This document shows positions 1 to 11,180 of a stretch of 11,312 bases of DNA, piece after piece (position 1 is the stretch's first letter; each line of letters opens with the position of its first letter). The stretch is taken from the NCBI GenBank assembly GCA_029932645.1, contig JAOZPR010000005.1, forward strand, positions 1,925 through 13,236, written 5' to 3'. Both the position numbers and the translations under genes were made by a program. This DNA comes from Candidatus Aenigmatarchaeota archaeon. GTDB lineage: Archaea; Aenigmatarchaeota; Aenigmatarchaeia; GW2011-AR5; JAGGXF01. Under the pieces are notes generated by a model. The model saw nothing but the letters and a program-made list of their open reading frames with translations, was not told the origin of the DNA and did not search any database.

Positions 1-2816
1 CCAATTGTTTTTCCTGCTGCATAAGAAGGTATTTGCATTGCAACTGAGGAAATGTTGTGTGTGCCAGAAAAATTACCTGATGAAACATTCTTCCACGAAT
101 CATCTGTAGTAGCATTCCAAGAAAAAGTCCAAGCAGACAAATTATAATTATCTGTCCAGTTAGCACTAAAATTAACATAATCGTTTATTGCTGGATTTGA
201 ATTATTATCTCTTAAATCGTACCATTGTGGCTTCTCCACTTCGCAAGCTGTGAAATCAGTAGAATTGCTATCCCATTGACCAGATGTGCTATTAGCGTAA
301 ATCTCGATATCCCATATTCCTATTGAGCTTAATTCATTTGGTATTGTATAATTATACTCATATGTGTAACCATTGGTTATCGAACTAATATTACTCATGG
401 TCTCATTATTGACCATGGCTGTTCCATTAGGATGTTCTATTGTTATCAAAACCGTGTCTATGTAACTTGCTCCATCAGGATGGCTCACATTAACCCTTAT
501 GGTAACATTCTCTCCTATCATAAAGGATGTTTTTTCTGTTAGTGTCGAATCATATGTTTTTGGTTTTTCCACATCTGTGGCAGCTTCTTCTGACTCTATA
601 CTATAAGATGGCTCTGGGGAGACATACTTCATAACCCTGATGTCATCTGTCAGAAATTCGTATCCACCGTGTATGAAAAAATAACTAAAGCTTGAGTAGG
701 TTGAATCTGAACCTGTTATGGACTTCACGATAATATCATTCATATCATAAAGCGTATAGTTCATGTTCTGATTGTAATAGGTAAAACTCTGCTTGTACCA
801 TTGGTTTTGATTTGATACATGTGTGCTAGATGTTACTGTGGTTGCTCCGCACGTATTACTTCTCTCCTCTATGTAAAAATCATCAGAGTTTCCGTTGGTT
901 TGCTTTCTTGGACCGTATCCGCTACAGCTGGTTGTTGCCCCCAAGCTATACCTATCTAAGGCGCCGCCGTTGTTATTAATCCTGTTGGTAAGAAATATCG
1001 CCCTGAAACTTGTGACAGTTTCTGACAATGCAATATAACATCCGTTCGGATCGTTGTTGCCTGTTTTCTTGATTACACCGCCTTGCGTCGTATCAGTATC
1101 GTAGACGCAGTAACCGCTTCCGTAATCTGTCCAGCCATCTATGTTTCCGTCTTCAAAGTCATCAAAAAGGAGAAATGTCGAAGAGCCGTTACTCTCGCTA
1201 TTGGCAGAAGGATTGCCGTAGTACATGTAAATCCTTGCAGTCCCGTTTCCCAATCCGATGTCTGTTGTATTTCCAGGAATCAAAATCACCTTTACCCAGA
1301 TTTTTGCCTTCTGCTCGCTAGAATTCCAAGATTCTACCCAATAAGGTATTGACGTTTCATTACCACTTGTTGCATTGTAGTATGTGAACCTTGTTGAGTT
1401 TTGTTGTGACCAGTTGAAGTTTGAGCCGACATTTGACGAGTTAAGGTTAATCTGGATTTGGTAATTCGTTAGATTCTCATTCACATTATTTGATATATTT
1501 ATCGCCTGTCTATAATCCCATGTTTCGTTCCACCAGCTTCCGCCAGCAGGGTCGAACGCAAGGAACTTTGATGGCGTGTTGTCTGTTTCGTATTCAAAGT
1601 ATTCCCATGTGCCAGATAGATGCGGAATCTTGTAAACATAAACTAATTGTTCTGGCTCAGGCAGCACAGAATTGTCAAGAACGCTTTCCAGGTCAGTGTT
1701 GATGTTGTGTGCTCTCAGCAAATCTTTTATTCCAGCGACTGCTGGGTCATCACTATACCATTTTTCCATAAAGCCTCTTGTTGAGAACAACAGTTCTGGC
1801 TCGTCGTATTTTTTGATTACATATGTTTGATTTTTGTAGTATGGGTAACCAACCTTCGTAACGTTACCATATGTCGCATTTGCCTCTATGTCTAGCTGCA
1901 ACGGAATGTATTCTAGAATTGGGGCATCCTTGTATTGCTCTGTGACATTGCCCTCATAGTATGTTACATTTTCTATGTAGATTTGCCTTGTCCTGCTCAC
2001 CAGATGCCACGCCTTGAATGACTGGATATTGCCTGTTATGGTTATGTAAGACACATCATCAGATTTGCTGTTGAATATCCTATATGTGATTCTCTGGCTC
2101 ACTGGTGATGTATGATAGTCGACCAGCTCGAACTCTGTGCCGTATGATGATAGGTTGAACAGGTCTGTCATCATGGTTTCCCTGACAGGCTTTGCCCCAA
2201 ACTTTCCAGTCAGCTTTGGTTTCAATGGCAGAGGAGCATCATATTCTATCTTTCTGAATCGGTTAGCCCTGATGTTCGCGAGCCCTGTCCTGACGTTTTC
2301 TGCGCCTTCAGGAGCAAGACCACGCCACTGCTCCAGGCTATCCACGTATTTAACCCAGTGGGCTTTTTTATTGGAAGGAGAAAAACGAGGCTGTTCTTCC
2401 GAGATGGGCGGGGATGGAACAGCCTCTTGAGAAAGATCATCTATACTGGCGGGCTCTTCTGGCGCTGGCTCTGTGCTTATAGTAAACTGGTTGCGCACAG
2501 TCTGGTTGTTGCTGGTCAGAACTATATCATAAAGGCCTTCGATAGAGAATCCTTTCAGTAGAGCAAAATATTTTCCAGTAAAATCTGTTCTGGCTAGTTT
2601 TTCATAGACCTTTGTGTTGTTTGGCCCAATGACAGTAAGATTAAAGAACGTTTTCGGCGCACTTGAGACCGTAATAAAAATGTTTTCGCCCGGCTCGTAT
2701 TGCGGATTGTTTGTTTCGACAGACAACTGACCTGCTGCGAGAGATAAACCAACTAGTAATAGAGTTGACGATATGACTATCAAAGCTAAAACTATTTTAG
2801 CTAACGCTTTCTTCAT
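1..2816 (-). CDS. Large secreted multidomain surface glycoprotein/adhesin with DUF2341 domain, lectin-like and Ig-like domains (3' truncated by window edge, >938 aa)
   Basis: Hand translation from ATG 2816 (SD GGTGA at 2821-2825) is open to position 1. It begins MKKALAKIVLALIVISSTLLLVGLSLA (signal peptide), then SVETNNPQYEPGENIFITV (MG/Ig-like) and a Pro-rich linker. DUF2341-type motifs at ~1535-1130: WWNETWDYRQAINISN..LTNYQIQINL..IPYWVESW..AKIWVKV..IYMYYGNPSA..FDDFEDG. A beta-sandwich and Ig-like repeats follow. Absent from the ORF track because it has no stop in the window. Confidence 0.92.
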   Translation of the reverse strand, partial: MKKALAKIVLALIVISSTLLLVGLSLAAGQLSVETNNPQYEPGENIFITVSSAPKTFFNLTVIGPNNTKVYEKLARTDFTGKYFALLKGFSIEGLYDIVLTSNNQTVRNQFTISTEPAPEEPASIDDLSQEAVPSPPISEEQPRFSPSNKKAHWVKYVDSLEQWRGLAPEGAENVRTGLANIRANRFRKIEYDAPLPLKPKLTGKFGAKPVRETMMTDLFNLSSYGTEFELVDYHTSPVSQRITYRIFNSKSDDVSYITITGNIQSFKAWHLVSRTRQIYIENVTYYEGNVTEQYKDAPILEYIPLQLDIEANATYGNVTKVGYPYYKNQTYVIKKYDEPELLFSTRGFMEKWYSDDPAVAGIKDLLRAHNINTDLESVLDNSVLPEPEQLVYVYKIPHLSGTWEYFEYETDNTPSKFLAFDPAGGSWWNETWDYRQAINISNNVNENLTNYQIQINLNSSNVGSNFNWSQQNSTRFTYYNATSGNETSIPYWVESWNSSEQKAKIWVKVILIPGNTTDIGLGNGTARIYMYYGNPSANSESNGSSTFLLFDDFEDGNIDGWTDYGSGYCVYDTDTTQGGVIKKTGNNDPNGCYIALSETVTSFRAIFLTNRINNNGGALDRYSLGATTSCSGYGPRKQTNGNSDDFYIEERSNTCGATTVTSSTHVSNQNQWYKQSFTYYNQNMNYTLYDMNDIIVKSITGSDSTYSSFSYFFIHGGYEFLTDDIRVMKYVSPEPSYSIESEEAATDVEKPKTYDSTLTEKTSFMIGENVTIRVNVSHPDGASYIDTVLITIEHPNGTAMVNNETMSNISSITNGYTYEYNYTIPNELSSIGIWDIEIYANSTSGQWDSNSTDFTACEVEKPQWYDLRDNNSNPAINDYVNFSANWTDNYNLSAWTFSWNATTDDSWKNVSSGNFSGTHNISSVAMQIPSYAAGKTI

Positions 2817-2999: not shown

Positions 3000-4025
3000 T
3001 TAGCCTATCGGATTTTTGTATATGCTTTTATATCTGATGAGCGCCAACATTGCCATGCTTGTGGCATAAATATCCTCTTTTTTCTCGGTGCCCATAAAAT
3101 AACCCCCATTCCAGCTTCCGTCTGGCCGTTGTTTTTTTATTAGCCATTGAATTCCCTTCTCGACTCTCTTTTTGCATTTCTCATTTTTTTTGCATGCACC
3201 TGAAACAAGTAATGTGTTCAAGGCCAGAGTCGTTCTCAACTCTTTTGATGGTCTGCCTTCGGCTGCAAGCCCCCAAGAGCCATCTGAGTTTTGCGTGGTC
3301 AGAACAAAGTCAATAGCTTTTTCTATTATATCGGCCTTGCCATAAATCTCAGCAGCCCAGACATTAATATAAGTTGCATAGTACGGCGTGTCATAATACA
3401 TCCATGAGCTGTTCCATGAACCGTCTTCCAGTTGCGTGGATGCAAGAAAGTCAAGTGCTTTGGTTATATTGCGGGTTATATTATATTTAGCGTGCTCATT
3501 GTCTTCATCAGTTAGCGTGAGCGCAACAAGAGCATAGCCAGTGACAGATGGGAATCTTTTGTCTTCTATAATAAATGGTGTGCCTATTTTCCAGTATCCT
3601 TGCGCATCCTGCTTGCCGACGAGAAATTCTCTCGTGTCGCTGATGTTTTCATCTGCAAGATAAAGAGCCAGCATTGCGACAGCTGTTGTTTCAATACAAT
3701 ATTCTTCTTTGGATGTCGTTGTCATATAAAAACCGCCGTCGCTCCGCTTGACCGTATTAAGGAAACGCGCTGCCTTATTGATCGTTTCATTGTAATTAAG
3801 CTTGTTCAAAAATGATAAAGCAACAACAGCATTGGCCGTATCCCAAATCTTGAACATAGAATTGCCTGACAATGATATGGAACCGTCTTTGTTCTGTTGG
3901 TCAACCAACCAGTCAGCAGCGCTATTCATAGAACTTGAGATGTTAGTCGTAGTTTGCTGCTGAATAACAAAAATTATAAGAATTAGCAACAGAATTAAAA
4001 TCAATGGCCAGGTTGCCTTCTTCAT
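3000..4025 (-). CDS. Membrane-anchored or exported prenyltransferase/squalene oxidase (QW) repeat protein, single (alpha/alpha)6 barrel, 341 aa
   Basis: Six QW-like repeats: LVDQQNKDGSI, LNTVKRSDGGF, LVGKQDAQGYW, LASTQLEDGSW, VLTTQNSDGSW, LIKKQRPDGSW. N-terminal MKKATWPLILILLLILIIFVI is a signal/anchor. Start moved from 4220 to ATG 4025 because the extension overlaps the upstream gene and a T-rich terminator-like tract. Confidence 0.88.
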   Translation of the reverse strand: MKKATWPLILILLLILIIFVIQQQTTTNISSSMNSAADWLVDQQNKDGSISLSGNSMFKIWDTANAVVALSFLNKLNYNETINKAARFLNTVKRSDGGFYMTTTSKEEYCIETTAVAMLALYLADENISDTREFLVGKQDAQGYWKIGTPFIIEDKRFPSVTGYALVALTLTDEDNEHAKYNITRNITKALDFLASTQLEDGSWNSSWMYYDTPYYATYINVWAAEIYGKADIIEKAIDFVLTTQNSDGSWGLAAEGRPSKELRTTLALNTLLVSGACKKNEKCKKRVEKGIQWLIKKQRPDGSWNGGYFMGTEKKEDIYATSMAMLALIRYKSIYKNPIG

Positions 4026-4179: not shown

Positions 4180-6726
4180 CTATTTCTTCCTGTCTGGCCT
4201 GTACTTGTATTTGAATTCATGAGATATTTTTGCTTTCAGATTATGCATCTTATGCATAGTATCCTGTCGCGCGGGCGTGCGGCTGGGCAGTGCACCTGTT
4301 AAGCGCGTGAGATTCGGCAAGCCGCCTCTTTCGCTTCCTTTCTTGTACTTGATTAAAAATCCGAATGCAACTATAATGATTATTAAGACAAGCCACCAGT
4401 TCGCGTTCAGGAAGGCTATGGGTGATGTTACCAGGGCTACCAATGCTGCCGGCACTCCAGCAATGGCTGTGAAGAGACCTGTCGGTGTCTCTTGTTCCTG
4501 GCTCGGGCCTGTGGGCAATTCCTCTAGGAACTGAACAGTAAGGGTTGCCTGGGCCTGAGTCTCAGCAGACTGGGCAGCCATATTTGCAAGGTAAAACTTC
4601 TTGCATTCGCGCGATGCACAATATCCTTTTGGAACGAAAAACCTCAGCTCCACGTCCACCTCATCATCAGGGCTCATCTGTGATATGCTCGTCGGAATTA
4701 TCTGATACCATTCCGGTGCCACACCTTCCACACCAATGGTTATATCAGTAAGGTTTGTCTGGCCTGTATTTTTGACTGTTATATTGACAGAGACTATTGT
4801 TCCTTCCGCGATATCGACTGTCTCTGGCGCCAACAGCGCCATGTCTGTCTTTCTTGAAAGCTCGAGAAAAACAGAAGATTCGGCAGGCAGGAAAGGCTCT
4901 TTCTCAGACCTCATCGTGAGCTTTGCCGAGCCTTCGTGCATTGGCGCCTTTGCATTAATCATGAAAAATCCGCCTATATCTGTTTTTACTGTTTCGTTGG
5001 TTGATCCGAGCGAGTATTCGACAACAGCGCCCTCTATGGGATTGCCATTCGAATCGAGCACCTTGCCTGAGATGGAAACCATCTCGCCCATGTAATAATT
5101 CTTCTTTGGTATGGTCACATCAAAATACAATGCTTTTCTTTCTCCTATAATAAATGATGAAAAGGAAGAAACATTGAATTTAACTATATTTGTGGTTGTA
5201 TCTATCACGGGGTTTTCTACTCTCTCCCATGTGTCTGAACATGAGCGCCTGTCAAAATTCCAGTTGTGGCAGGTATAAACCTCTATTCGTTGTTCATCAA
5301 CAACTTTTGATGCGTCGTAATATATCTCCAAGTCAGCAGACTCGAAACTAAGCTGCGGTGAAAGCTCAAGAACAACCAAGCTGGCAACAGATATGCCTGG
5401 TATATCTGCTTCACCAGAAAAGCTGTCAAACCTTATCGCATCCTTGATGCCGGTTTTGATATCAACCCCTTTGAGTGTTGCCAACAGGGTGTCGAACTGC
5501 AAAACCACTGTGTAGTTGCCTGGAAGAATCGATGCAGAATACTCACCAAGCTCATTAATATTTATCTGCTTTGTCTCGCCGCCCTTTGTGAGTTTTATTG
5601 TGCCTTTTACAGCGTGGTTGTCAGCATCCGAAACCTTGCCCGAAAACGGAAGTATGAACTTTATTGGGCTTTTTGCCTCGACCATGATGGGCGATAGCAC
5701 GTTGTAGTCCATGGCCAAGAAAAGCCTGTATGTGCCTGATTCATACTGAGGCAACTTGACTGTTATATCGCCTGTTCCTGACTGCATGCTGTATGAAAAA
5801 TCTGTTATCTCCAGATTGCTTGTCTTTTCTCCATCTTCGTTCATGAGATAAACATAAAAATCGGACTGCGAGATATCATCTATCGCGTTTTTGTTATAGA
5901 ACGCTGAATAGTGTATACTCAACGTGCCTGCTGTCGAGTATTCCAGCGAACCCCCATCGTTTACGTCCAAAATCTCCAAATCAAGCGGTGATTGAATCCT
6001 CACAACATTTCTTTCTATTATTTTATAGTTGTGTTGAACACCGGCATCAAAGTATTCCACCTCTACAATAAGATTGTATAGTATATCTGTGTCCAGGCTT
6101 GAGTAATCATAGTTCACGAAAGGTTCCAGAAGGAAGCGCTTTGTGTTCTGGTTAAAGCCAACTGGTCCAAGACTGAGTTGGTGCTTCTGACCAAACTGTT
6201 CCAGATAAATCTTGAAAGAGGGGTTTTGGGCAGGCTCTTTTATGTTCGACTCCACGAAGAGCTCTGTTTCTACAGGTTCGTCAAACTCCTGGCCAACATA
6301 AACAGAATAGGGTGGGCTGGCCTCTGGCAAAATCACATCACCAGTCAGCCTCTTAACACTGAATGTTGTCTGGTCAGTATCTGTTGACCCGGCATAGCTA
6401 CATGTTATATCCATTAGGTATGAACCAGGGTCTGCGGTCTGATAAGTAAGAGAAAATATATCATTTTCAGAATCGTATATAAAATCTATTGGCTGATATG
6501 TTACAGATTTGTGTGTAACCACTCCGCGAACAAGCAGGTTGGAAGAACTAACATTTGTCTCTGTGCATTTGGCAGTTATCACGATGTTGGCAGGAGAATA
6601 TGTATTTTCTCCTGTCTGCTCTATCCACGGGTTTGCAGTGACCTGTACATTGCTAACCTGAACTGCTCCAACAAGACTTACCAATAAAAGAATTGCCCCG
6701 ATAATAATATAGAGCTTCTTAACCAT
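4180..6726 (-). CDS. Multidomain cell-surface protein, 848 aa (signal peptide, Ig-like and carboxypeptidase-regulatory-like domains, PGF-pre-PGF-like domain, NEW3/CARDB-like domain, C-terminal TM anchor)
   Basis: Signal MVKKLYIIIGAILLLVSLVGA. Carboxypeptidase-regulatory-like motifs FSGKVSDADNHAVKG..GEYSASILPGNYTV and ISGKVLDSNGNPIEGAVV. PGF-pre-PGF-like ending IEVYTC..WERV..FNVSSFSSFIIG. NEW3-like VNITVKNTGQTNLTDITIGV..PEW..SPDDEVDVELRFFVP. TM WWLVLIIIIVAFGFLI followed by a basic tail. Confidence 0.88.
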   Translation of the reverse strand: MVKKLYIIIGAILLLVSLVGAVQVSNVQVTANPWIEQTGENTYSPANIVITAKCTETNVSSSNLLVRGVVTHKSVTYQPIDFIYDSENDIFSLTYQTADPGSYLMDITCSYAGSTDTDQTTFSVKRLTGDVILPEASPPYSVYVGQEFDEPVETELFVESNIKEPAQNPSFKIYLEQFGQKHQLSLGPVGFNQNTKRFLLEPFVNYDYSSLDTDILYNLIVEVEYFDAGVQHNYKIIERNVVRIQSPLDLEILDVNDGGSLEYSTAGTLSIHYSAFYNKNAIDDISQSDFYVYLMNEDGEKTSNLEITDFSYSMQSGTGDITVKLPQYESGTYRLFLAMDYNVLSPIMVEAKSPIKFILPFSGKVSDADNHAVKGTIKLTKGGETKQININELGEYSASILPGNYTVVLQFDTLLATLKGVDIKTGIKDAIRFDSFSGEADIPGISVASLVVLELSPQLSFESADLEIYYDASKVVDEQRIEVYTCHNWNFDRRSCSDTWERVENPVIDTTTNIVKFNVSSFSSFIIGERKALYFDVTIPKKNYYMGEMVSISGKVLDSNGNPIEGAVVEYSLGSTNETVKTDIGGFFMINAKAPMHEGSAKLTMRSEKEPFLPAESSVFLELSRKTDMALLAPETVDIAEGTIVSVNITVKNTGQTNLTDITIGVEGVAPEWYQIIPTSISQMSPDDEVDVELRFFVPKGYCASRECKKFYLANMAAQSAETQAQATLTVQFLEELPTGPSQEQETPTGLFTAIAGVPAALVALVTSPIAFLNANWWLVLIIIIVAFGFLIKYKKGSERGGLPNLTRLTGALPSRTPARQDTMHKMHNLKAKISHEFKYKYRPDRKK

Positions 6727-7549: not shown

Positions 7550-7570
7550 TTATATATATAATTATTTTTT
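7550..7570 (-). promoter_or_regulatory. TATA-box promoter for minD and the 848-aa gene
   Basis: Minus strand reads AAAAAATAATTATATATATA, overlapping the previous stop codon, about 35-45 nt upstream of the minD start. Confidence 0.5.
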
Positions 7571-8389
7571 CTTAATATAAAGCTTTGTAGCCCTTTTTCT
7601 TGGCTTCTTTACGTGCCTGAGTACAAACAAGAGTACTAAAAAGCCTGCCAAAGCATATGCCGGGTAGATGCTTTGCGGTTTTTTGAGTGTTATGACCTTT
7701 TTAGCATAGTATTTACCATCTTCTGACATTATCTCTAAGGTTATCGGCTCTTCTCTCCAGTAATCTGTATCATAAGATATTGTCCCGGATATTTTGCCCT
7801 TCGTGGGCTCGAGCTTTTTCGACTCAAGATACCAGCCCATTGGATATTCTGACGGAATAATCACCAAGGGTGGCAAAACTTCAGCACCCTTCTTTTTTCT
7901 TATGTTTAGCTTGATAGTGTTTTGTGTGTTTGTTATGGATATATCAGCCAGGTCCTCTAGTGATATTTTTTTGCTTATATTTGTGTTGACAGCTGAGAAT
8001 CTGACTTCTTTTATTTTTTCTGACTCATAGCAATAATAGGCTGTTAAAATACCTCTGTAATCGCCGTCCTCTGGAGCCAACCAATAGATATCAAAAGAGT
8101 CGTATGCGCCGGGCTTCAGCAATTTTTCCTGGCTCCAGTCTGTGTATATGGTTTTGTTGTCCTTTGATATGTCTGCCCTTATCTTAACCTTGCAGGCGAC
8201 CGACCCACTGTTCAGCCATTCTAAATAGAAATGCTGGTATGTAGAATTGGTAATATTTTCGAACGAAAAATATTCTACATAGCCTTGAATCTCGCCAGAG
8301 ATATCGATACTAACATCTGGTGCTGAAACAGGTGTGGATAACACAATAACAGATATGATAGCGCACATGAACAAATATTTTACATCCAC
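7562..8389 (-). CDS. Secreted, C-terminally anchored Ig-fold protein (~275 aa), hypothetical
   Basis: GTG 8389 follows a strong SD GAGGTGA (track start 8398 lies inside this SD). Signal peptide ends PVSA. Ig-like motif LEWLNSGSV..LKPG..FDIYW..GDY. TM YALAGFLVLLFVL followed by a Lys/Arg tail. Confidence 0.85.
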   Translation of the reverse strand: MDVKYLFMCAIISVIVLSTPVSAPDVSIDISGEIQGYVEYFSFENITNSTYQHFYLEWLNSGSVACKVKIRADISKDNKTIYTDWSQEKLLKPGAYDSFDIYWLAPEDGDYRGILTAYYCYESEKIKEVRFSAVNTNISKKISLEDLADISITNTQNTIKLNIRKKKGAEVLPPLVIIPSEYPMGWYLESKKLEPTKGKISGTISYDTDYWREEPITLEIMSEDGKYYAKKVITLKKPQSIYPAYALAGFLVLLFVLRHVKKPRKRATKLYIKKK

Positions 8390-8414
8390 TCTTTTCACCT
8401 CTTACTGATTAAAC

Positions 8415-8438
8415 ATGTTTATGAAAATGTTTATGAAA
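8415..8438. repeat. 12-bp tandem duplication ATGTTTATGAAA x2 spanning the stop codon of the 208-aa gene
   Basis: Seen directly. The minus strand reads TTT TCA TAA ACA TTT TCA TAA. Confidence 0.7.
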
Positions 8439-9057
8439 AATATAGCGCCGGGATTAAAAAATCATATTTCGGTATCTTTATTTTGACCTCCATCTCTCCT
8501 GTGTAATAACCAAGCTCTGTTATATTCAATACGATTTTGACTGTCAGTTCTTTGCCTGGCTGTACTATTATGTTATTTTGGTCTGGGGTTATGAACTGAG
8601 AGATGTTCCCATAGTTTATTATCTTAATTTTTGCAGGTCTTTCTCCATTGTTTGGTATGGACAAGAATTTGGTAACCACGGGTGTCACATTAAACACAAG
8701 CCTGCCGAAATTAAGTCTGTCTGTTTCAGAAGAGACGCCAAGGTCTAACTTGGTCTGGTTTGTACGTTCTATCACCAGAACCTCTGTTGGATATCTGTAT
8801 AAAATACTTTCAAAAAATATCCCGTCTTTTTGTTCTATGGACATGTTAGTAGCAAGCACAACTGGTTCCTGCTCAATGCTAAACAATTCCGAGATAAAAA
8901 ACAACAGAAATATCAATATAGCCAATACTATTACCAGCACTTTAATATTTTTTGATTTTTTAGATTTCTTAGATTTCTTTGATCTGGTTGCTCTTATCAG
9001 CTTTGATTTTCTTGATTTATTTGCTTTTTTTCTTTTTGCCATTTTTCTTTTTACCAT
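8431..9057 (-). CDS. Type II membrane protein, 208 aa: Lys-rich N-terminus, single TM, extracellular Ig-like domain
   Basis: K/R-rich first 39 aa and TM VLVIVLAILIFLLFFI. Ig-like motif LNFGRL..LSIPNNGERP..IVQPGKELTVKI..GYYTGEMEV. SD GGTGA overlaps the upstream TGA stop. Confidence 0.87.
   Translation of the reverse strand: MVKRKMAKRKKANKSRKSKLIRATRSKKSKKSKKSKNIKVLVIVLAILIFLLFFISELFSIEQEPVVLATNMSIEQKDGIFFESILYRYPTEVLVIERTNQTKLDLGVSSETDRLNFGRLVFNVTPVVTKFLSIPNNGERPAKIKIINYGNISQFITPDQNNIIVQPGKELTVKIVLNITELGYYTGEMEVKIKIPKYDFLIPALYFS
8947..8982 (-). repeat. Imperfect 9-bp coding tandem repeat x4 (SKK SKK SKK SKN)
   Basis: TCAAAGAAA TCTAAGAAA TCTAAAAAA TCAAAAAAT on the minus strand. Confidence 0.75.
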
Positions 9058-9062
9058 CTAGC

Positions 9063-10037
9063 TCACCATTTCCAATAGACCAAAAATAATATAAAGAGCA
9101 CTACCAAGATGACAAGCCACCAAGGAAATTCACTCGGCTTTGGCGGCAGTGCGGCTTTTATTGCTTCTGGTATCTCAAGGTCATATCTTTCAGATATGGT
9201 TCCTGTCGAATAATCAACCACTACCTTTGCTGTGTACAGGCCTGGCTCTATGTCTTCTCCCCGCCAGAAAACAGAAAGTATTCCGGTTGTTTTTGGTGTA
9301 ACTTTTGCATCTCCCCCTTTGAGAACCGTGACTATATTGTTTTCTTTATCAAATAATTTTAACTCATTTAATCTTGCCACCATTGTGACTGTTCCTGTAT
9401 TCTGAAAAACAGTGTCAAACCTGACTATGTTTTTCATCTCCCTCTCTGCAAAAACGTTGACAACCTTTCCCTTTCGTATAGCCGGGTCTGGAACAACATG
9501 AAAAACAAAATAGAATCTCGTTATACCTATTGTGGAAACAGCTGTTCCACCGCTGGGTGTTGCTGCCATCTTAGGATCCAGATTTATGGCGCCCACATGA
9601 TATCCTGGTTCAGCGTTTCTCGGGACATCGAGTATGAATTCGACGTCGGCATTAGCACTGACTGTTTTTCCAGACGGTAAGCGCACAACGATTTCTGGAG
9701 CTTTTGGAGATATAAAAACAGGATTCTCTGGAAACTTGACCCAACCATTGACAGACTCTTCTGATGCGTTCTTCGGCACAAAACCTGTTGCCCCTTCTTT
9801 CATGAATATAGTAAGATGTGGGTTGGTTGTAGACAAACCAACAAGCATATCGTTTTCTGCATTGGTCAAGATATAAAACATGCCAACAGCCCGCTCACCA
9901 GGTTTGACATCACCAAGATCCAACAGACCAGGAGCAGTACCGACAGAAAGGGCTAGACAAATATTAGAACATAGCAACAATACCAACAATGATAATAATA
10001 GTGGTGGTAAAGCCAATGAACGCAAATCCCTCTTCAT
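9063..10037 (-). CDS. Two-domain surface protein resembling DUF916/DUF3324 (WxL-interacting) and PapD-like chaperones, C-terminal TM anchor, 324 aa
   Basis: Signal peptide. Domain 1: VGTAPGLLDLGDVKPGE..WVKF..VEFILDVPRNAEPGYHVGAI. Domain 2: FQNTGTV..VTP..VFW..IEPGLYTAKVVVDY. Anchor PWWLVILVVLFILFLVYW. The CDS is secure; the family call is by eye. Confidence 0.8.
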   Translation of the reverse strand: MKRDLRSLALPPLLLSLLVLLLCSNICLALSVGTAPGLLDLGDVKPGERAVGMFYILTNAENDMLVGLSTTNPHLTIFMKEGATGFVPKNASEESVNGWVKFPENPVFISPKAPEIVVRLPSGKTVSANADVEFILDVPRNAEPGYHVGAINLDPKMAATPSGGTAVSTIGITRFYFVFHVVPDPAIRKGKVVNVFAEREMKNIVRFDTVFQNTGTVTMVARLNELKLFDKENNIVTVLKGGDAKVTPKTTGILSVFWRGEDIEPGLYTAKVVVDYSTGTISERYDLEIPEAIKAALPPKPSEFPWWLVILVVLFILFLVYWKW

Positions 10038-10066
10038 TTCCCTCTTTTATTTATTATCATAAGGAC

Positions 10067-10085
10067 TATATAAATTTTAGTTTTG
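10067..10085 (-). promoter_or_regulatory. BRE/TATA promoter for the accessory genes (10037 onward)
   Basis: Minus strand A-rich tract followed by TTTATATA (10074-10067), 30-37 nt upstream of ATG 10037. Confidence 0.6.
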
Positions 10086-10153
10086 GCTTGGTTTACAAAC
10101 TGGTTTAAAAAATTTTCTTCATCTGATTGAGATATCTAGAACTACAAGTATTG

Positions 10154-10168
10154 AAACAAAAAATAAAA
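10154..10168 (-). terminator. Oligo-T archaeal terminator after the pilin-like gene
   Basis: TTTTATTTTTTGTTT starts 8 nt after the TAA stop at 10176. Confidence 0.55.
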
Positions 10169-10175
10169 TCGTAGC

Positions 10176-11111
10176 TTATTCTACGCCTGCTGCAACGAGC
10201 GTTAATTTACCAGTTATGCTACCGTGTGGCGTACCATACGGCACTACAACCCTCACATTTAATACCATAGTGTCTCCAGGATTGAACTTTGTCGTACCAT
10301 CTGCAAGCAGGTCCTGGTACGAACACCCCCCTTCTTCTCCTGGAACATCCATATTATATTTGTAAAATATTGTGTGGTTGCACGTATACTCAATAGCCAT
10401 ACAATACTGATATCCTTCTATTGTAACCTCTGCCAATCCCCAGTTCGTATAATTACCACCAGCATTGGACATGTTATAATATGAATAATCTGTGCCTGTG
10501 GATGTGAAATCTGTCGTACCTGTTGATGAAGAATTGTGCGGGCTCTTTGCTATTCTCACATCACCTTTGTTGGCATTTGCATCTGTATCGTTACATTGTC
10601 CGTTTGCTCCTGGATTCACTGTCCATATGAATTCATGATAGGCATCTGTTGAAAAGTTGGCTGTTCTGAACCTTCCATATTTCCAGCCAGCGTCAAATGA
10701 GGCAAAAGGTAGGGTAGAAGTTTCGTTCCACTCGTGCCTGTTCACATAGAAATATGCCCAAGACGCATTCGCTTCTCTTTTTGTGACAACAAAATTACCA
10801 GCATCATAGTTGCTCAACAAACCAGTACCGAACGGCCGGGTTGATGGATATGTGGTGTTCAGCCACAAATATGTAATGTTTGTAGAACCGATATTTTCAA
10901 CAAAAACATCCTGGCTGCTACCAACATCGCCTGGGTTTAGTCCAGTCCAGTTCAATGCGTTGGGCGTGAAGTCCAGTTGTGTGACAGTTCCAACAGTAAC
11001 AGTTATATTGACCTCTTCTGTTGAATTGGCTGTAGGTATAGCAAATACAGAAACAGATAAAAACAAAATTCCCGATATAATAAGGATGATATCCCTTAAT
11101 AACTTGTCCAT
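10176..11111 (-). CDS. Secreted beta-rich glycoprotein, 311 aa, candidate major pilin/filament subunit
   Basis: ATG 11111 with SD GGAGG (track start TTG 11126 lies in the SD region). Sec signal ends SVFA. No TM anchor. About 13 N-x-S/T sequons and 4 Cys. N-terminal strand EEVNITVTV, motif LNWTGLNPG..VENIGS, C-terminus VVVPYGTPHGSITGKLTLVA. Confidence 0.85.
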   Translation of the reverse strand: MDKLLRDIILIISGILFLSVSVFAIPTANSTEEVNITVTVGTVTQLDFTPNALNWTGLNPGDVGSSQDVFVENIGSTNITYLWLNTTYPSTRPFGTGLLSNYDAGNFVVTKREANASWAYFYVNRHEWNETSTLPFASFDAGWKYGRFRTANFSTDAYHEFIWTVNPGANGQCNDTDANANKGDVRIAKSPHNSSSTGTTDFTSTGTDYSYYNMSNAGGNYTNWGLAEVTIEGYQYCMAIEYTCNHTIFYKYNMDVPGEEGGCSYQDLLADGTTKFNPGDTMVLNVRVVVPYGTPHGSITGKLTLVAAGVE

Positions 11112-11164: not shown

Positions 11165-11180
11165 TATATAAAGTTTGTGG
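11165..11180 (-). promoter_or_regulatory. TATA-box promoter for the pilin-like gene
   Basis: Minus strand CCACAAACTTTATATA, with consensus TTTATATA at 11172-11165. Confidence 0.65.

Follow-up and report, generated by a model that had tools for sequence, protein, structure and literature searches.

It has long been asked how the symbiotic archaea of the DPANN group locate and hold on to their hosts; most of their candidate filaments have been classed as type IV pili or archaella. Here we ask whether a gene cluster of a Candidatus Aenigmatarchaeota archaeon encodes a different fibre, for which it would supply the subunit together with a chaperone, anchors, and a giant, variable tip. The cluster lies in a stretch of 11,312 nucleotides, here called the window (assembly GCA_029932645.1, contig JAOZPR010000005.1, positions 1,925 to 13,236). 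The source genome (G000) comprises 718,593 bases and is 89% complete, a scope that all genome-wide negative results carry. A preliminary description, made from the letters of the DNA alone, had read four minus-strand genes as an usher-less, chaperone-assisted donor-strand pilus system. The four open reading frames are as claimed (311 amino acids (aa), 11111-10176; 324 aa, 10037-9063; 208 aa, 9057-8431; 278 aa, 8398-7562), and the interpretation overall is supported. That the locus is a real, conserved, donor-strand surface system is well supported, and the cluster probably specifies an usher-less, sortase-less, chaperone-guided donor-strand pilus.

A secreted candidate pilin with an unpaired N-terminal strand

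The candidate subunit and its two decisive strands are laid out as follows:

10176..11111, minus strand: candidate major pilin, 311 aa, with a signal peptide (~1-24), an N-terminal donor strand, an incomplete immunoglobulin-like (Ig) core, an inserted domain of ~150 aa, and an end just past the last strand
10992..11015, minus strand: predicted donor strand EVNITVTV, pilin residues 33-40 (hydrophobic alternation, unpaired in the model, co-evolution register)
10188..10223, minus strand: C-terminal (acceptor-side) strand of the pilin, residues 297-308, predicted to pair in antiparallel fashion with the donor strand (conservation and co-evolution)

With 270 representatives at E <= 0.001, the family of the pilin is large and has no name; it occurs in 91 of the 301 Aenigmatarchaeota genomes, in one to five copies that are often tandem paralogues. 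An 86%-identical copy is present in G038, a relative from the same genus, and some members are labelled Altiarchaeota. Searches of Pfam, NCBIfam, and PDB sequences returned no named family for this protein or for the 324-aa protein. The WxL family PF13731 is absent from all 129 members of the pilin alignment among the matches listed and from all 151 genomes searched at E <= 0.01 (the Lactococcus control was positive); the nearest named ESM cluster is WxL, at only 0.80. The protein had been described as secreted and unanchored, and this holds: it has a hydrophobic N-terminal signal and no later hydrophobic helix, and among 128 homologues the N-terminal hydrophobic window is found in 125 and a downstream one in a single case. 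A class III-like (FlaFind-like) pattern occurs in 10 of the 128 homologues; it is missing from all four proteins, and reading the subunit as a type IV pilin was rejected. One 672-aa protein (P0046) has a full pilin domain at 381-665 behind a region that is LamG-like by eye, and could be an adhesive subunit.

AlphaFold2 modelled the mature pilin (residues 25-311; alignment of 129 sequences) with a pLDDT of 93.5 and a pTM of 0.90, and all five models reached a pLDDT of 92.5-93.5. In the best model, mature residues 1-21 have no strand partner, and residues 11-20 have a mean pLDDT of 96. This segment alternates: mature positions 10, 12, 14, and 16 are hydrophobic at frequencies of 0.75, 0.99, 0.98, and 1.00, and positions 11, 13, and 15 at 0.10, 0.08, and 0.05, which gives the family pattern [AVI]-x-[VI]-x-V-x-[VI]. 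At the other end, the chain stops 0-8 residues past its last strand (GTLTVxA) in all 129 rows. Fold searches place an Ig core of ~90-125 residues over positions 16-287, with the large insertion between, and match it best to ASH/PapD/MSP domains (Z 6.0-6.5). Several of the alignments end ~25 residues before the partner domain does (MSP 1grw, 3-97 of 124; VAPB 9jui, 5-96 of 123), and matches to complete domains that stop early fit a missing last strand. Lower matches include FimA, FimI, FimF, TasA, PapE, and CanA (Z 4.1-5.2), and all of these fold likenesses are leads only. No WxL chain is among the best 50 rows, counted as one row per entry, in a search in which the inserted domain dilutes scores.

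Co-evolution pairs the free strand with the C-terminal strand

Couplings were computed from 251 pooled homologues (effective number 229), 23 of the 274 aligned rows having been dropped for gaps. As controls, they recovered the two top cysteine pairs (213-239 and 149-220) together with the strand pairings B-E and C-F. The best of 235 antiparallel registers for the N-terminal strand (mature residues 9-16) falls on the C-terminal strand with a mean z of 2.18 (i+j=289; pairs 9-280, 13-276, and 15-274), and the runner-up, at 1.35, is its direct neighbour. This register persisted at three regularisation strengths, ranked first in six of eight half-samples, and stayed in the top three in all eight; the 12 nearest-neighbour block swaps all gave 1.13 or less, and plain block shuffles 1.15 or less. 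The best parallel register had a mean z of 1.8 and was driven by a core contact, 14-264. These couplings place the N-terminal strand of the pilin in the groove, next to the C-terminal strand and antiparallel to it, and a strand that is free in a confident monomer model yet co-evolves in this way is the signature of donor-strand polymerisation.

The strand might instead complete the fold of its own chain, as a monomer or a closed swapped dimer, which would make these proteins ordinary secreted or S-layer-associated Ig proteins. Co-evolution of the two strands would look alike in cis, and on its own it cannot separate cis from trans pairing; Ig-like folds are also common among DPANN surface proteins, and the best structural matches of the pilin are generic. 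Set against this, the best of the five models leaves the strand unpaired despite the co-evolution signal. Moreover, by a strong coupling between residues 22 and 283 (z 14), the first core strand lies at one end of the C-terminal strand and 273, the partner of residue 16, at the other. The separation of about ten strand residues, or ~30 A by the standard strand rise rather than by model coordinates, is likely beyond the reach of the five-residue linker, which makes pairing in trans likelier. Acceptor-only (the tip, below) and donor-only (the 278-aa protein) architectures also co-occur with the pilin. We give self-completion very little credence. The 311-aa protein did not emerge as a self-complete fold or a known enzyme or S-layer fold: the model leaves its N-terminal strand without a partner, and the couplings link that strand to the C-terminal one. 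Donor-strand pairing with another subunit is the predicted arrangement.

A membrane-anchored candidate chaperone resembling WxLIP

9063..10037, minus strand: candidate membrane-anchored chaperone, 324 aa, with a signal peptide, two predicted WxLIP-like beta-sandwich domains, and a C-terminal transmembrane helix
9495..9542, minus strand: loop-plus-strand AVSTIGITRFYFVFHV of the chaperone, residues 166-181, at the ElrE/PapD-type donor-strand position, with conserved V167, I170, and I172; putative donor

Full-length homologues of the 324-aa protein are nearly always single-copy and occur in 90 of the 301 genomes (104 genomes had matches, of which 14 weak partial ones were set aside). Family members include proteins labelled Nanohaloarchaea, and one UniRef name is DUF916-containing. 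The model, from 107 sequences, has two beta-sandwiches and a C-terminal helix (pLDDT 94.0, pTM 0.83). The highest TM-score listed by Foldseek belongs to the WxLIP of Enterococcus faecium (9i25_C, 0.46/0.52, E 3.8e-9), against 0.32/0.39 for the chaperone CfaA and 0.29/0.38 for FimC. In a wide fold search the best two-domain match was again a WxLIP (9i1y_A; Z 12.7, rmsd 6.1, 225 aligned), with the chaperone-usher chaperone YadV behind it (Z 9.2). In the ESM Atlas the protein scores 0.94 to a cluster that is 98% PF06030+PF11797, after unnamed archaeal and Minisyncoccota clusters.

At the sequence level the family is more remote. PF11797 is weakly matched by 8 of the 107 members (best E 1.6e-4) and exceeds its cut-off in none of 151 genomes; PF06030 is not among the best 25 of 40 families for the 107 members, and in the one genome of 151 in which it passes the cut-off it lies in another protein. 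Weak PF11797 matches in 31 of the 151 genomes were left uncounted; most of them lay on other Ig proteins. No member matches PapD_N, and one of the 107 weakly matches PapD_C (E 0.0045). The DUF916/PapD-like character claimed in the preliminary description therefore stands in part: the predicted fold matches WxLIP over both domains, and the DUF916 likeness is at the fold and language-model level only, below the Pfam cut-off. Among the controls, PF06030 (DUF916) matched proteins of Methanosarcina acetivorans, Thermotoga maritima, and Lactococcus, exceeding the cut-off in two of the three, and PF11797 was weakly matched in Methanocaldococcus jannaschii; a related protein may exist in a cultured archaeon.

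The segment that would serve as the chaperone's donor has V167, I170, and I172 hydrophobic at 0.93, 0.92, and 0.84, and is mostly without strand assignment. Mature residues 137-152 form a loop and a strand in the model where ElrE, a WxLIP chaperone, has its donor strand (139-153). The 324-aa protein likely acts as the pilin chaperone and would bind the subunit.

Could the 311-aa protein make a donor-strand fibre alone, as do TasA, CanA, archaeal bundling pili, and tafi, with the 324-aa protein as a nucleator or anchor? TasA is the top-probability Foldseek row for the pilin (fibre 8aur; prob 0.80, E 0.041, TM 0.30), and CanA appears as well; in the fold search TasA has Z 4.9 over 127 aligned residues and CanA Z 4.1-4.3, all below 8. 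Published archaeal fibres of the donor-strand kind are described as not depending on a chaperone (PMC12337348), and the pilin gene, which is not always linked, carries promoter- and terminator-like motifs of its own. What argues otherwise is the 324-aa protein itself, with its two-domain, C-terminally anchored, WxLIP-like architecture and, where a chaperone has its donor, an exposed hydrophobic segment that is conserved; it is also mostly single-copy against several pilins, and co-occurs with them. We therefore regard a chaperone-free fibre as unlikely and retain the chaperone-guided pilus.

A giant candidate tip adhesin

1..2816, minus strand: 5' part of the gene for a giant secreted protein with DUF2341 repeats, candidate tip adhesin; it leaves the contig after 1,580 aa, and its own 3' end is unassembled

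The orthologue of this gene in G038 encodes a 3,759-aa protein (85-94% identical) that terminates in a pilin-core-like domain at 3629-3758. Sixteen large proteins of these loci have no C-terminal anchor and share one conserved terminal domain, which is without a Pfam or PDB match and lacks a free N-terminal strand; their payloads are DUF2341, LamG, PQQ-propeller, or beta-helix. Aligned as halves, the terminal domain matches the pilin core at HHalign 64% and 84%. When it was ranked among 648 locus proteins, the eight next-best after its own family were all pilins, with insignificant E-values. Its profile occurs in 108 of the 301 genomes, strongly in 83. The giant protein is likely a tip adhesin with a pilin-like acceptor domain.

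A second tip-type gene, on contig C10 of the source genome, encodes 2,545 aa, is open at its start, and has two more pilin paralogues alongside. Elsewhere, one tip-type domain (G099:C1:101986-102402) lies within an open frame of 12,864 aa, and others lie in frames of 3,500-6,200 aa. Beside tip genes we also observed a recurring second module (L101:15097-18284, L103, L104, L106, L115, L118, and source-genome C10:3-10788). It comprises two anchored proteins: one of 190-280 aa, whose single domain is a homologue of chaperone domain 1 (HHalign 93%), and one of 407-488 aa that is a homologue of the 278-aa protein (98.8%). By eye, the two genes that follow the C10 tip resemble this module. The module may be a tip-specific split chaperone.

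Minor components and placement

8431..9057, minus strand: 208-aa protein, candidate base adaptor, with an N-terminal signal anchor, the strand YPTEVLVI, and an Ig-like domain
7562..8398, minus strand: 278-aa protein, candidate donor-only terminator/anchor, with a signal peptide, the strand VSIDI, two domains, and a C-terminal helix
6749..7531, minus strand: archaeal MinD-family ATPase (TIGR01969 over cut-off)
4180..6726, minus strand: 848-aa secreted multi-Ig protein with a C-terminal transmembrane helix, included for its conservation in the cluster

Behind its signal, the 278-aa protein opens with x-[IV]-x-V-x-I, which is the donor pattern of the pilin; in its strand VSIDI, V29, I31, and I33 are hydrophobic in 30 of 30 rows. 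The strand is followed by a domain homologous to chaperone domain 2 (HHalign 95-97%), then by another domain and, in most cases, a C-terminal helix. By its layout, which is that of PamR in the Pam pili discussed below, we infer a candidate donor-only terminator or anchor. The 208-aa protein has an N-terminal anchor, an alternating strand, and an Ig domain that resembles chaperone domain 1 (HHalign 75%; 34% with trimmed profiles) and ends after an F-like strand, G-[NY]-[YF]-T-G; it may be a base adaptor or, together with the 278-aa protein, a split chaperone paralogue. Both had been called membrane-anchored Ig proteins. This is borne out for the 208-aa protein, whose anchor is N-terminal, and partly for the 278-aa protein: of 27 complete homologues (3 of the 30 rows are cut by locus ends and were set aside), 7 have by eye an amphipathic-looking tail and no clear transmembrane helix.

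With 34-59 pairs, paired co-evolution did not rise above noise for 278-aa/pilin, 208-aa/pilin, chaperone/pilin (shallow, at 35 pairs), chaperone/208-aa, and 278-aa/208-aa; for the last, the top antiparallel register lies on the final strand of the 208-aa protein (z 2.8), tied with others. The orientation of the MinD-family gene varies across chaperone loci, and the ATPase could position the fibre. The 848-aa family is present in nanohaloarchaea-like contigs too, where the homologues have by eye a cytoplasmic C2H2 zinc-finger-like C-terminus (CxxC...HxxxxH; L082:2286-4979, L084:4618-7344, L086:2256-5222).

So many minor anchored components (208, 278, and 848 aa, and the second chaperone-like and anchor-like pair beside tip genes) would suit a different product, in which strand complementation builds a short stalk of a few subunits that shows the giant adhesin through the S-layer and no long pilus forms. 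The subunit, on the other hand, has both donor and acceptor, comes in one to five paralogues, and has its own promoter-like site, all of which fit a high-copy polymer. We hold the short stalk to be very unlikely and continue with the pilus.

The cluster is conserved across genomes

Synteny was examined in 45 chosen stretches. Forty were genome regions, none longer than 19 kb, selected around matches to the chaperone or the pilin on long contigs; the other five were the window, its relative, and three metagenome contigs. The chaperone is present in 43 of the 45; one stretch ends at the chaperone, and two share one genome. Among these 43 loci the 208-aa family occurs in 41, the 278-aa family in 40, the MinD family in 42, the 848-aa family in 38, and the pilin in 31, often divergent from the chaperone gene and sometimes unlinked. 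Two brine contigs with acidic proteins (L083 and L084), detected by means of a nanohaloarchaeal profile, have the same gene order, with two pilins. Pilin and chaperone occur together in 78 of the 301 genomes, against 27 expected if they were independent, a comparison given without a P-value because kin genomes are not independent; pilin, chaperone, and tip are all present in 65. The genes that the preliminary description had grouped thus co-occur and are syntenic across genomes. Its four genes are part of a larger unit: the conserved cluster reaches beyond their coordinates through the MinD-family gene, the gene for the 848-aa protein, and the giant gene of the likely tip adhesin, to the left end of the window.

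Several further arrangements were seen. A second locus type in other Aenigmatarchaeota (L066:412-2683, L071:414-2085, L077:712-2894, L063:1021-3085, L075:942-2526) encodes pilin-like proteins of 184-212 aa that end in a V-P-x(4-5)-G-type strand, a chaperone-like protein of 357-400 aa, and a 208-aa-family-like gene. The 311-aa pilin family is absent from all 14 weak-chaperone and all 25 weak-tip genomes, and for this reason the two locus types look mutually exclusive. At 10 loci (e.g., L094:10378-10653 and L103:8427-8696), a 90-aa protein that is weakly PqqD-like (E 2.8e-4) lies between divergent pilin and chaperone genes. An anchored protein of ~1,950 aa with NPCBM-associated and MG2 domains often follows the pilin on the opposite strand (L101:2590-8442, L103, L104, L106, L111, L113, L116, L117).

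Gene layout, expression motifs, and absent functions

All window genes judged real are on the minus strand, in the order 311, 324, 208, and 278 aa, MinD, 848 aa, 340 aa, and the start of the giant gene. The 311-aa gene had been described as separately promoted and terminated, which agrees with four putative elements read from the sequence; all promoter- and terminator-like elements are motif matches, made without a chance control for archaeal motifs.

11165..11172, minus strand: putative TATA-like box TTTATATA, upstream of the pilin gene
11124-11120, minus strand: putative GGAGG, upstream of the pilin gene
10154..10168, minus strand: putative T-rich terminator-like tract after the pilin stop codon
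10067..10074, minus strand: putative second TATA-like box TTTATATA, upstream of the chaperone-like gene

The preliminary description had also stated that no class III signal, sortase motif, or usher is present in the window. By motif patterns, LPxTG, PGF-CTERM, twin-arginine, and class III-like signals occur in none of the four proteins, and LPxTG in none of the eight window proteins. Neither an usher (PF00577; E. coli control positive) nor a sortase (PF04203) was found in the source genome. The statement is thus right for the four proteins and for usher and sortase genome-wide, and fails in one place: the first gene of the window (2816-><1), the tip candidate, matches the loose class III-like pattern (KALA). 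ATPases of PF00437 (type IV-type) are encoded elsewhere in the source genome.

Two other features of the window were noted. A short direct repeat, CATTTTCATAAA / TTTTTCATAAA (minus strand), stands at the end of the 208-aa gene (8408-8432). The gene at 3000-4025 encodes a secreted or anchored alpha-toroid protein (prenyltransferase/squalene-cyclase-like; 340 aa counted from the second ATG), which we left out of the system because it is found only in the window and the same-genus relative.

Proposed assembly and its weighing

In the assembly that we propose, the pilin would leave the cell by Sec export as an Ig-like sandwich minus its last strand, and the chaperone strand (residues ~166-173) would fill its groove at the membrane. 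Residues 33-40 of the next subunit would then displace the chaperone strand and pair antiparallel with residues 297-304. Head-to-tail growth would begin on the acceptor-only C-terminal domain of the giant, variable-payload adhesin and would end when a membrane-bound donor, the 278-aa protein and perhaps by way of the 208-aa protein, inserts to leave a sortase-free membrane tether. Formation of a filament, binding of the subunit by the 324-aa protein, the order of the minor subunits, and the 208-aa and 278-aa proteins as base anchors are the steps that we infer. The likely use would be attachment to host cells or surfaces; the suggestion of host attachment comes from lifestyle and payloads only.

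Several results weigh against this assembly, beyond the cis-trans ambiguity of the couplings, the ~30 A estimate, and the helix-poor tails of some 278-aa homologues. For the pilin, no fold match reaches Z 8, and the best rows are generic ASH/PapD-like domains. For the chaperone, no family member reaches the cut-offs of PF06030, PF11797, or PF13731; the 9i1y_A match has, besides its rmsd of 6.1, an identity of 16% and is equalled in Z by one generic Ig domain from a GH2 enzyme (7cwd, 102 aligned); and RbmA is first by Foldseek E-value, but with a TM-score of 0.23. A WxLIP sequence match (top PDB row of the A2 profile, E 0.16) was lost with the deeper A4 profile and was not used. The whole tip domain compared with the whole pilin gives only 12.6%. 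Twelve of the 43 chaperone loci have no pilin in the fetched stretch, and single-sequence searches of these incomplete genomes found the pilin only in 13 and the chaperone only in 12; at least one of the 13, G209, has the chaperone by profile.

Comparison with known systems

Among the closest counterparts is the Elr/WxL pilus of Enterococcus faecalis and other Bacillota, with the pilin ElrD, the WxLIP (DUF916/DUF3324) chaperone ElrE, the tip ElrA, and the anchor ElrB (10.64898/2026.10.17.759780). This preprint of October 2026 showed WxL/DUF916 clusters to be chaperone-guided donor-strand pili, so that the two alternatives of the preliminary description, a non-type-IV appendage and a WxL-like complex, merge into one. 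Shared with Elr/WxL are a two-domain, WxLIP-like predicted chaperone fold with a C-terminal transmembrane helix, an analogous large adhesin with a C-terminal subunit-like acceptor domain, and an N-terminal donor strand that lies antiparallel to the subunit's C-terminal strand. Here the last of these comes from prediction and co-evolution and would act in trans, and ElrD subunits pair in the same geometry (10.64898/2026.10.17.759780). The differences are that the present system is archaeal and does not reach the cut-offs of PF13731, PF06030, and PF11797; its donor pattern is [AVI]-x-[VI]-x-V-x-[VI], as against [S/T]-x-[G/A]-x-[V/I]-x-F in Elr; its subunit has an inserted, disulfide-bearing domain of ~150 aa; it lacks LPxTG and sortase, a terminator and sortase being optional in the Elr preprint; and it has additional conserved genes, those for the 208-, 278-, and 848-aa proteins and MinD. 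The Elr system was called confined to Bacillota on the basis of Pfam cut-offs applied to RefSeq reference proteomes (10.64898/2026.10.17.759780), a screen that the archaeal proteins, being below those cut-offs, would not pass.

The Pam pili of CPR bacteria comprise the pilins PamA/B, the chaperones PamC/D, the tip PamT, and the terminator PamR (PMC13278184). Like the present system they belong to small-genome symbionts and are usher-less donor-strand fibres with transmembrane-anchored chaperones, which are predicted in Pam too, and the layout of PamR (N-terminal strand, two domains, C-terminal helix) is that of the 278-aa protein (PMC13278184). As described, however, Pam pilins donate an internal linker strand between N- and C-terminal domains, whereas the archaeal donor directly follows the signal peptide; the archaeal Ig core also has an extra inserted domain, and the tip is giant here and a small single domain in Pam.

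Chaperone-usher pili (Fim, Pap, Csu, CFA/I) have in common with this system an incomplete Ig subunit ending at its last strand and a two-domain chaperone. The archaeal locus differs in being usher-less, with no outer membrane, a membrane-anchored chaperone, and no PapD_N match. TasA, CanA, bundling pili, and tafi, some of them archaeal, are similar in their Sec/Tat-secreted subunit, whose donor strand is N-terminal, and in a weak fold likeness; they are described as chaperone-free, whereas here a WxLIP-like protein is tightly linked and no twin-arginine motif is present. Our literature search, mostly without subscription journals, found no archaeal chaperone-guided donor-strand pilus, only the bacterial Elr and Pam systems and chaperone-free archaeal fibres. 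Pili-like structures of no assigned type, stalks that unwind into thin filaments, are reported for Ca. Nanohalobium constans (10.1101/794461), and the discussion of DPANN filaments in the available text of PMC11291902 concerns type IV loci only.

The pilus class of which this locus is an archaeal variant was not described in bacteria until 2026. The locus is present in ~30% of the Aenigmatarchaeota genomes sampled and also in Nanohaloarchaea, some of which are in culture; it offers a mechanism for the display of giant lectin-like DPANN proteins, and its two-gene core is open to a co-expression test, as for ElrD/ElrE. We lean somewhat towards the wider claim that DPANN archaea (Aenigmatarchaeota, Nanohaloarchaeota, and probably Altiarchaeota) build the first archaeal chaperone-guided donor-strand pilus, with a WxLIP-related membrane chaperone, a membrane-helix base of split paralogues (208 + 278 aa), MinD-linked placement, and interchangeable giant tips (open frames to 12,864 aa) that set host range. 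On the best reading, the cluster works like the Elr/WxL and Pam pili and is a member of neither, Pam being set apart by its pilin architecture as described. If the wider claim is true, the archaeal locus, Elr, and Pam would form one ancient usher-less pilus class that spans both prokaryotic domains.

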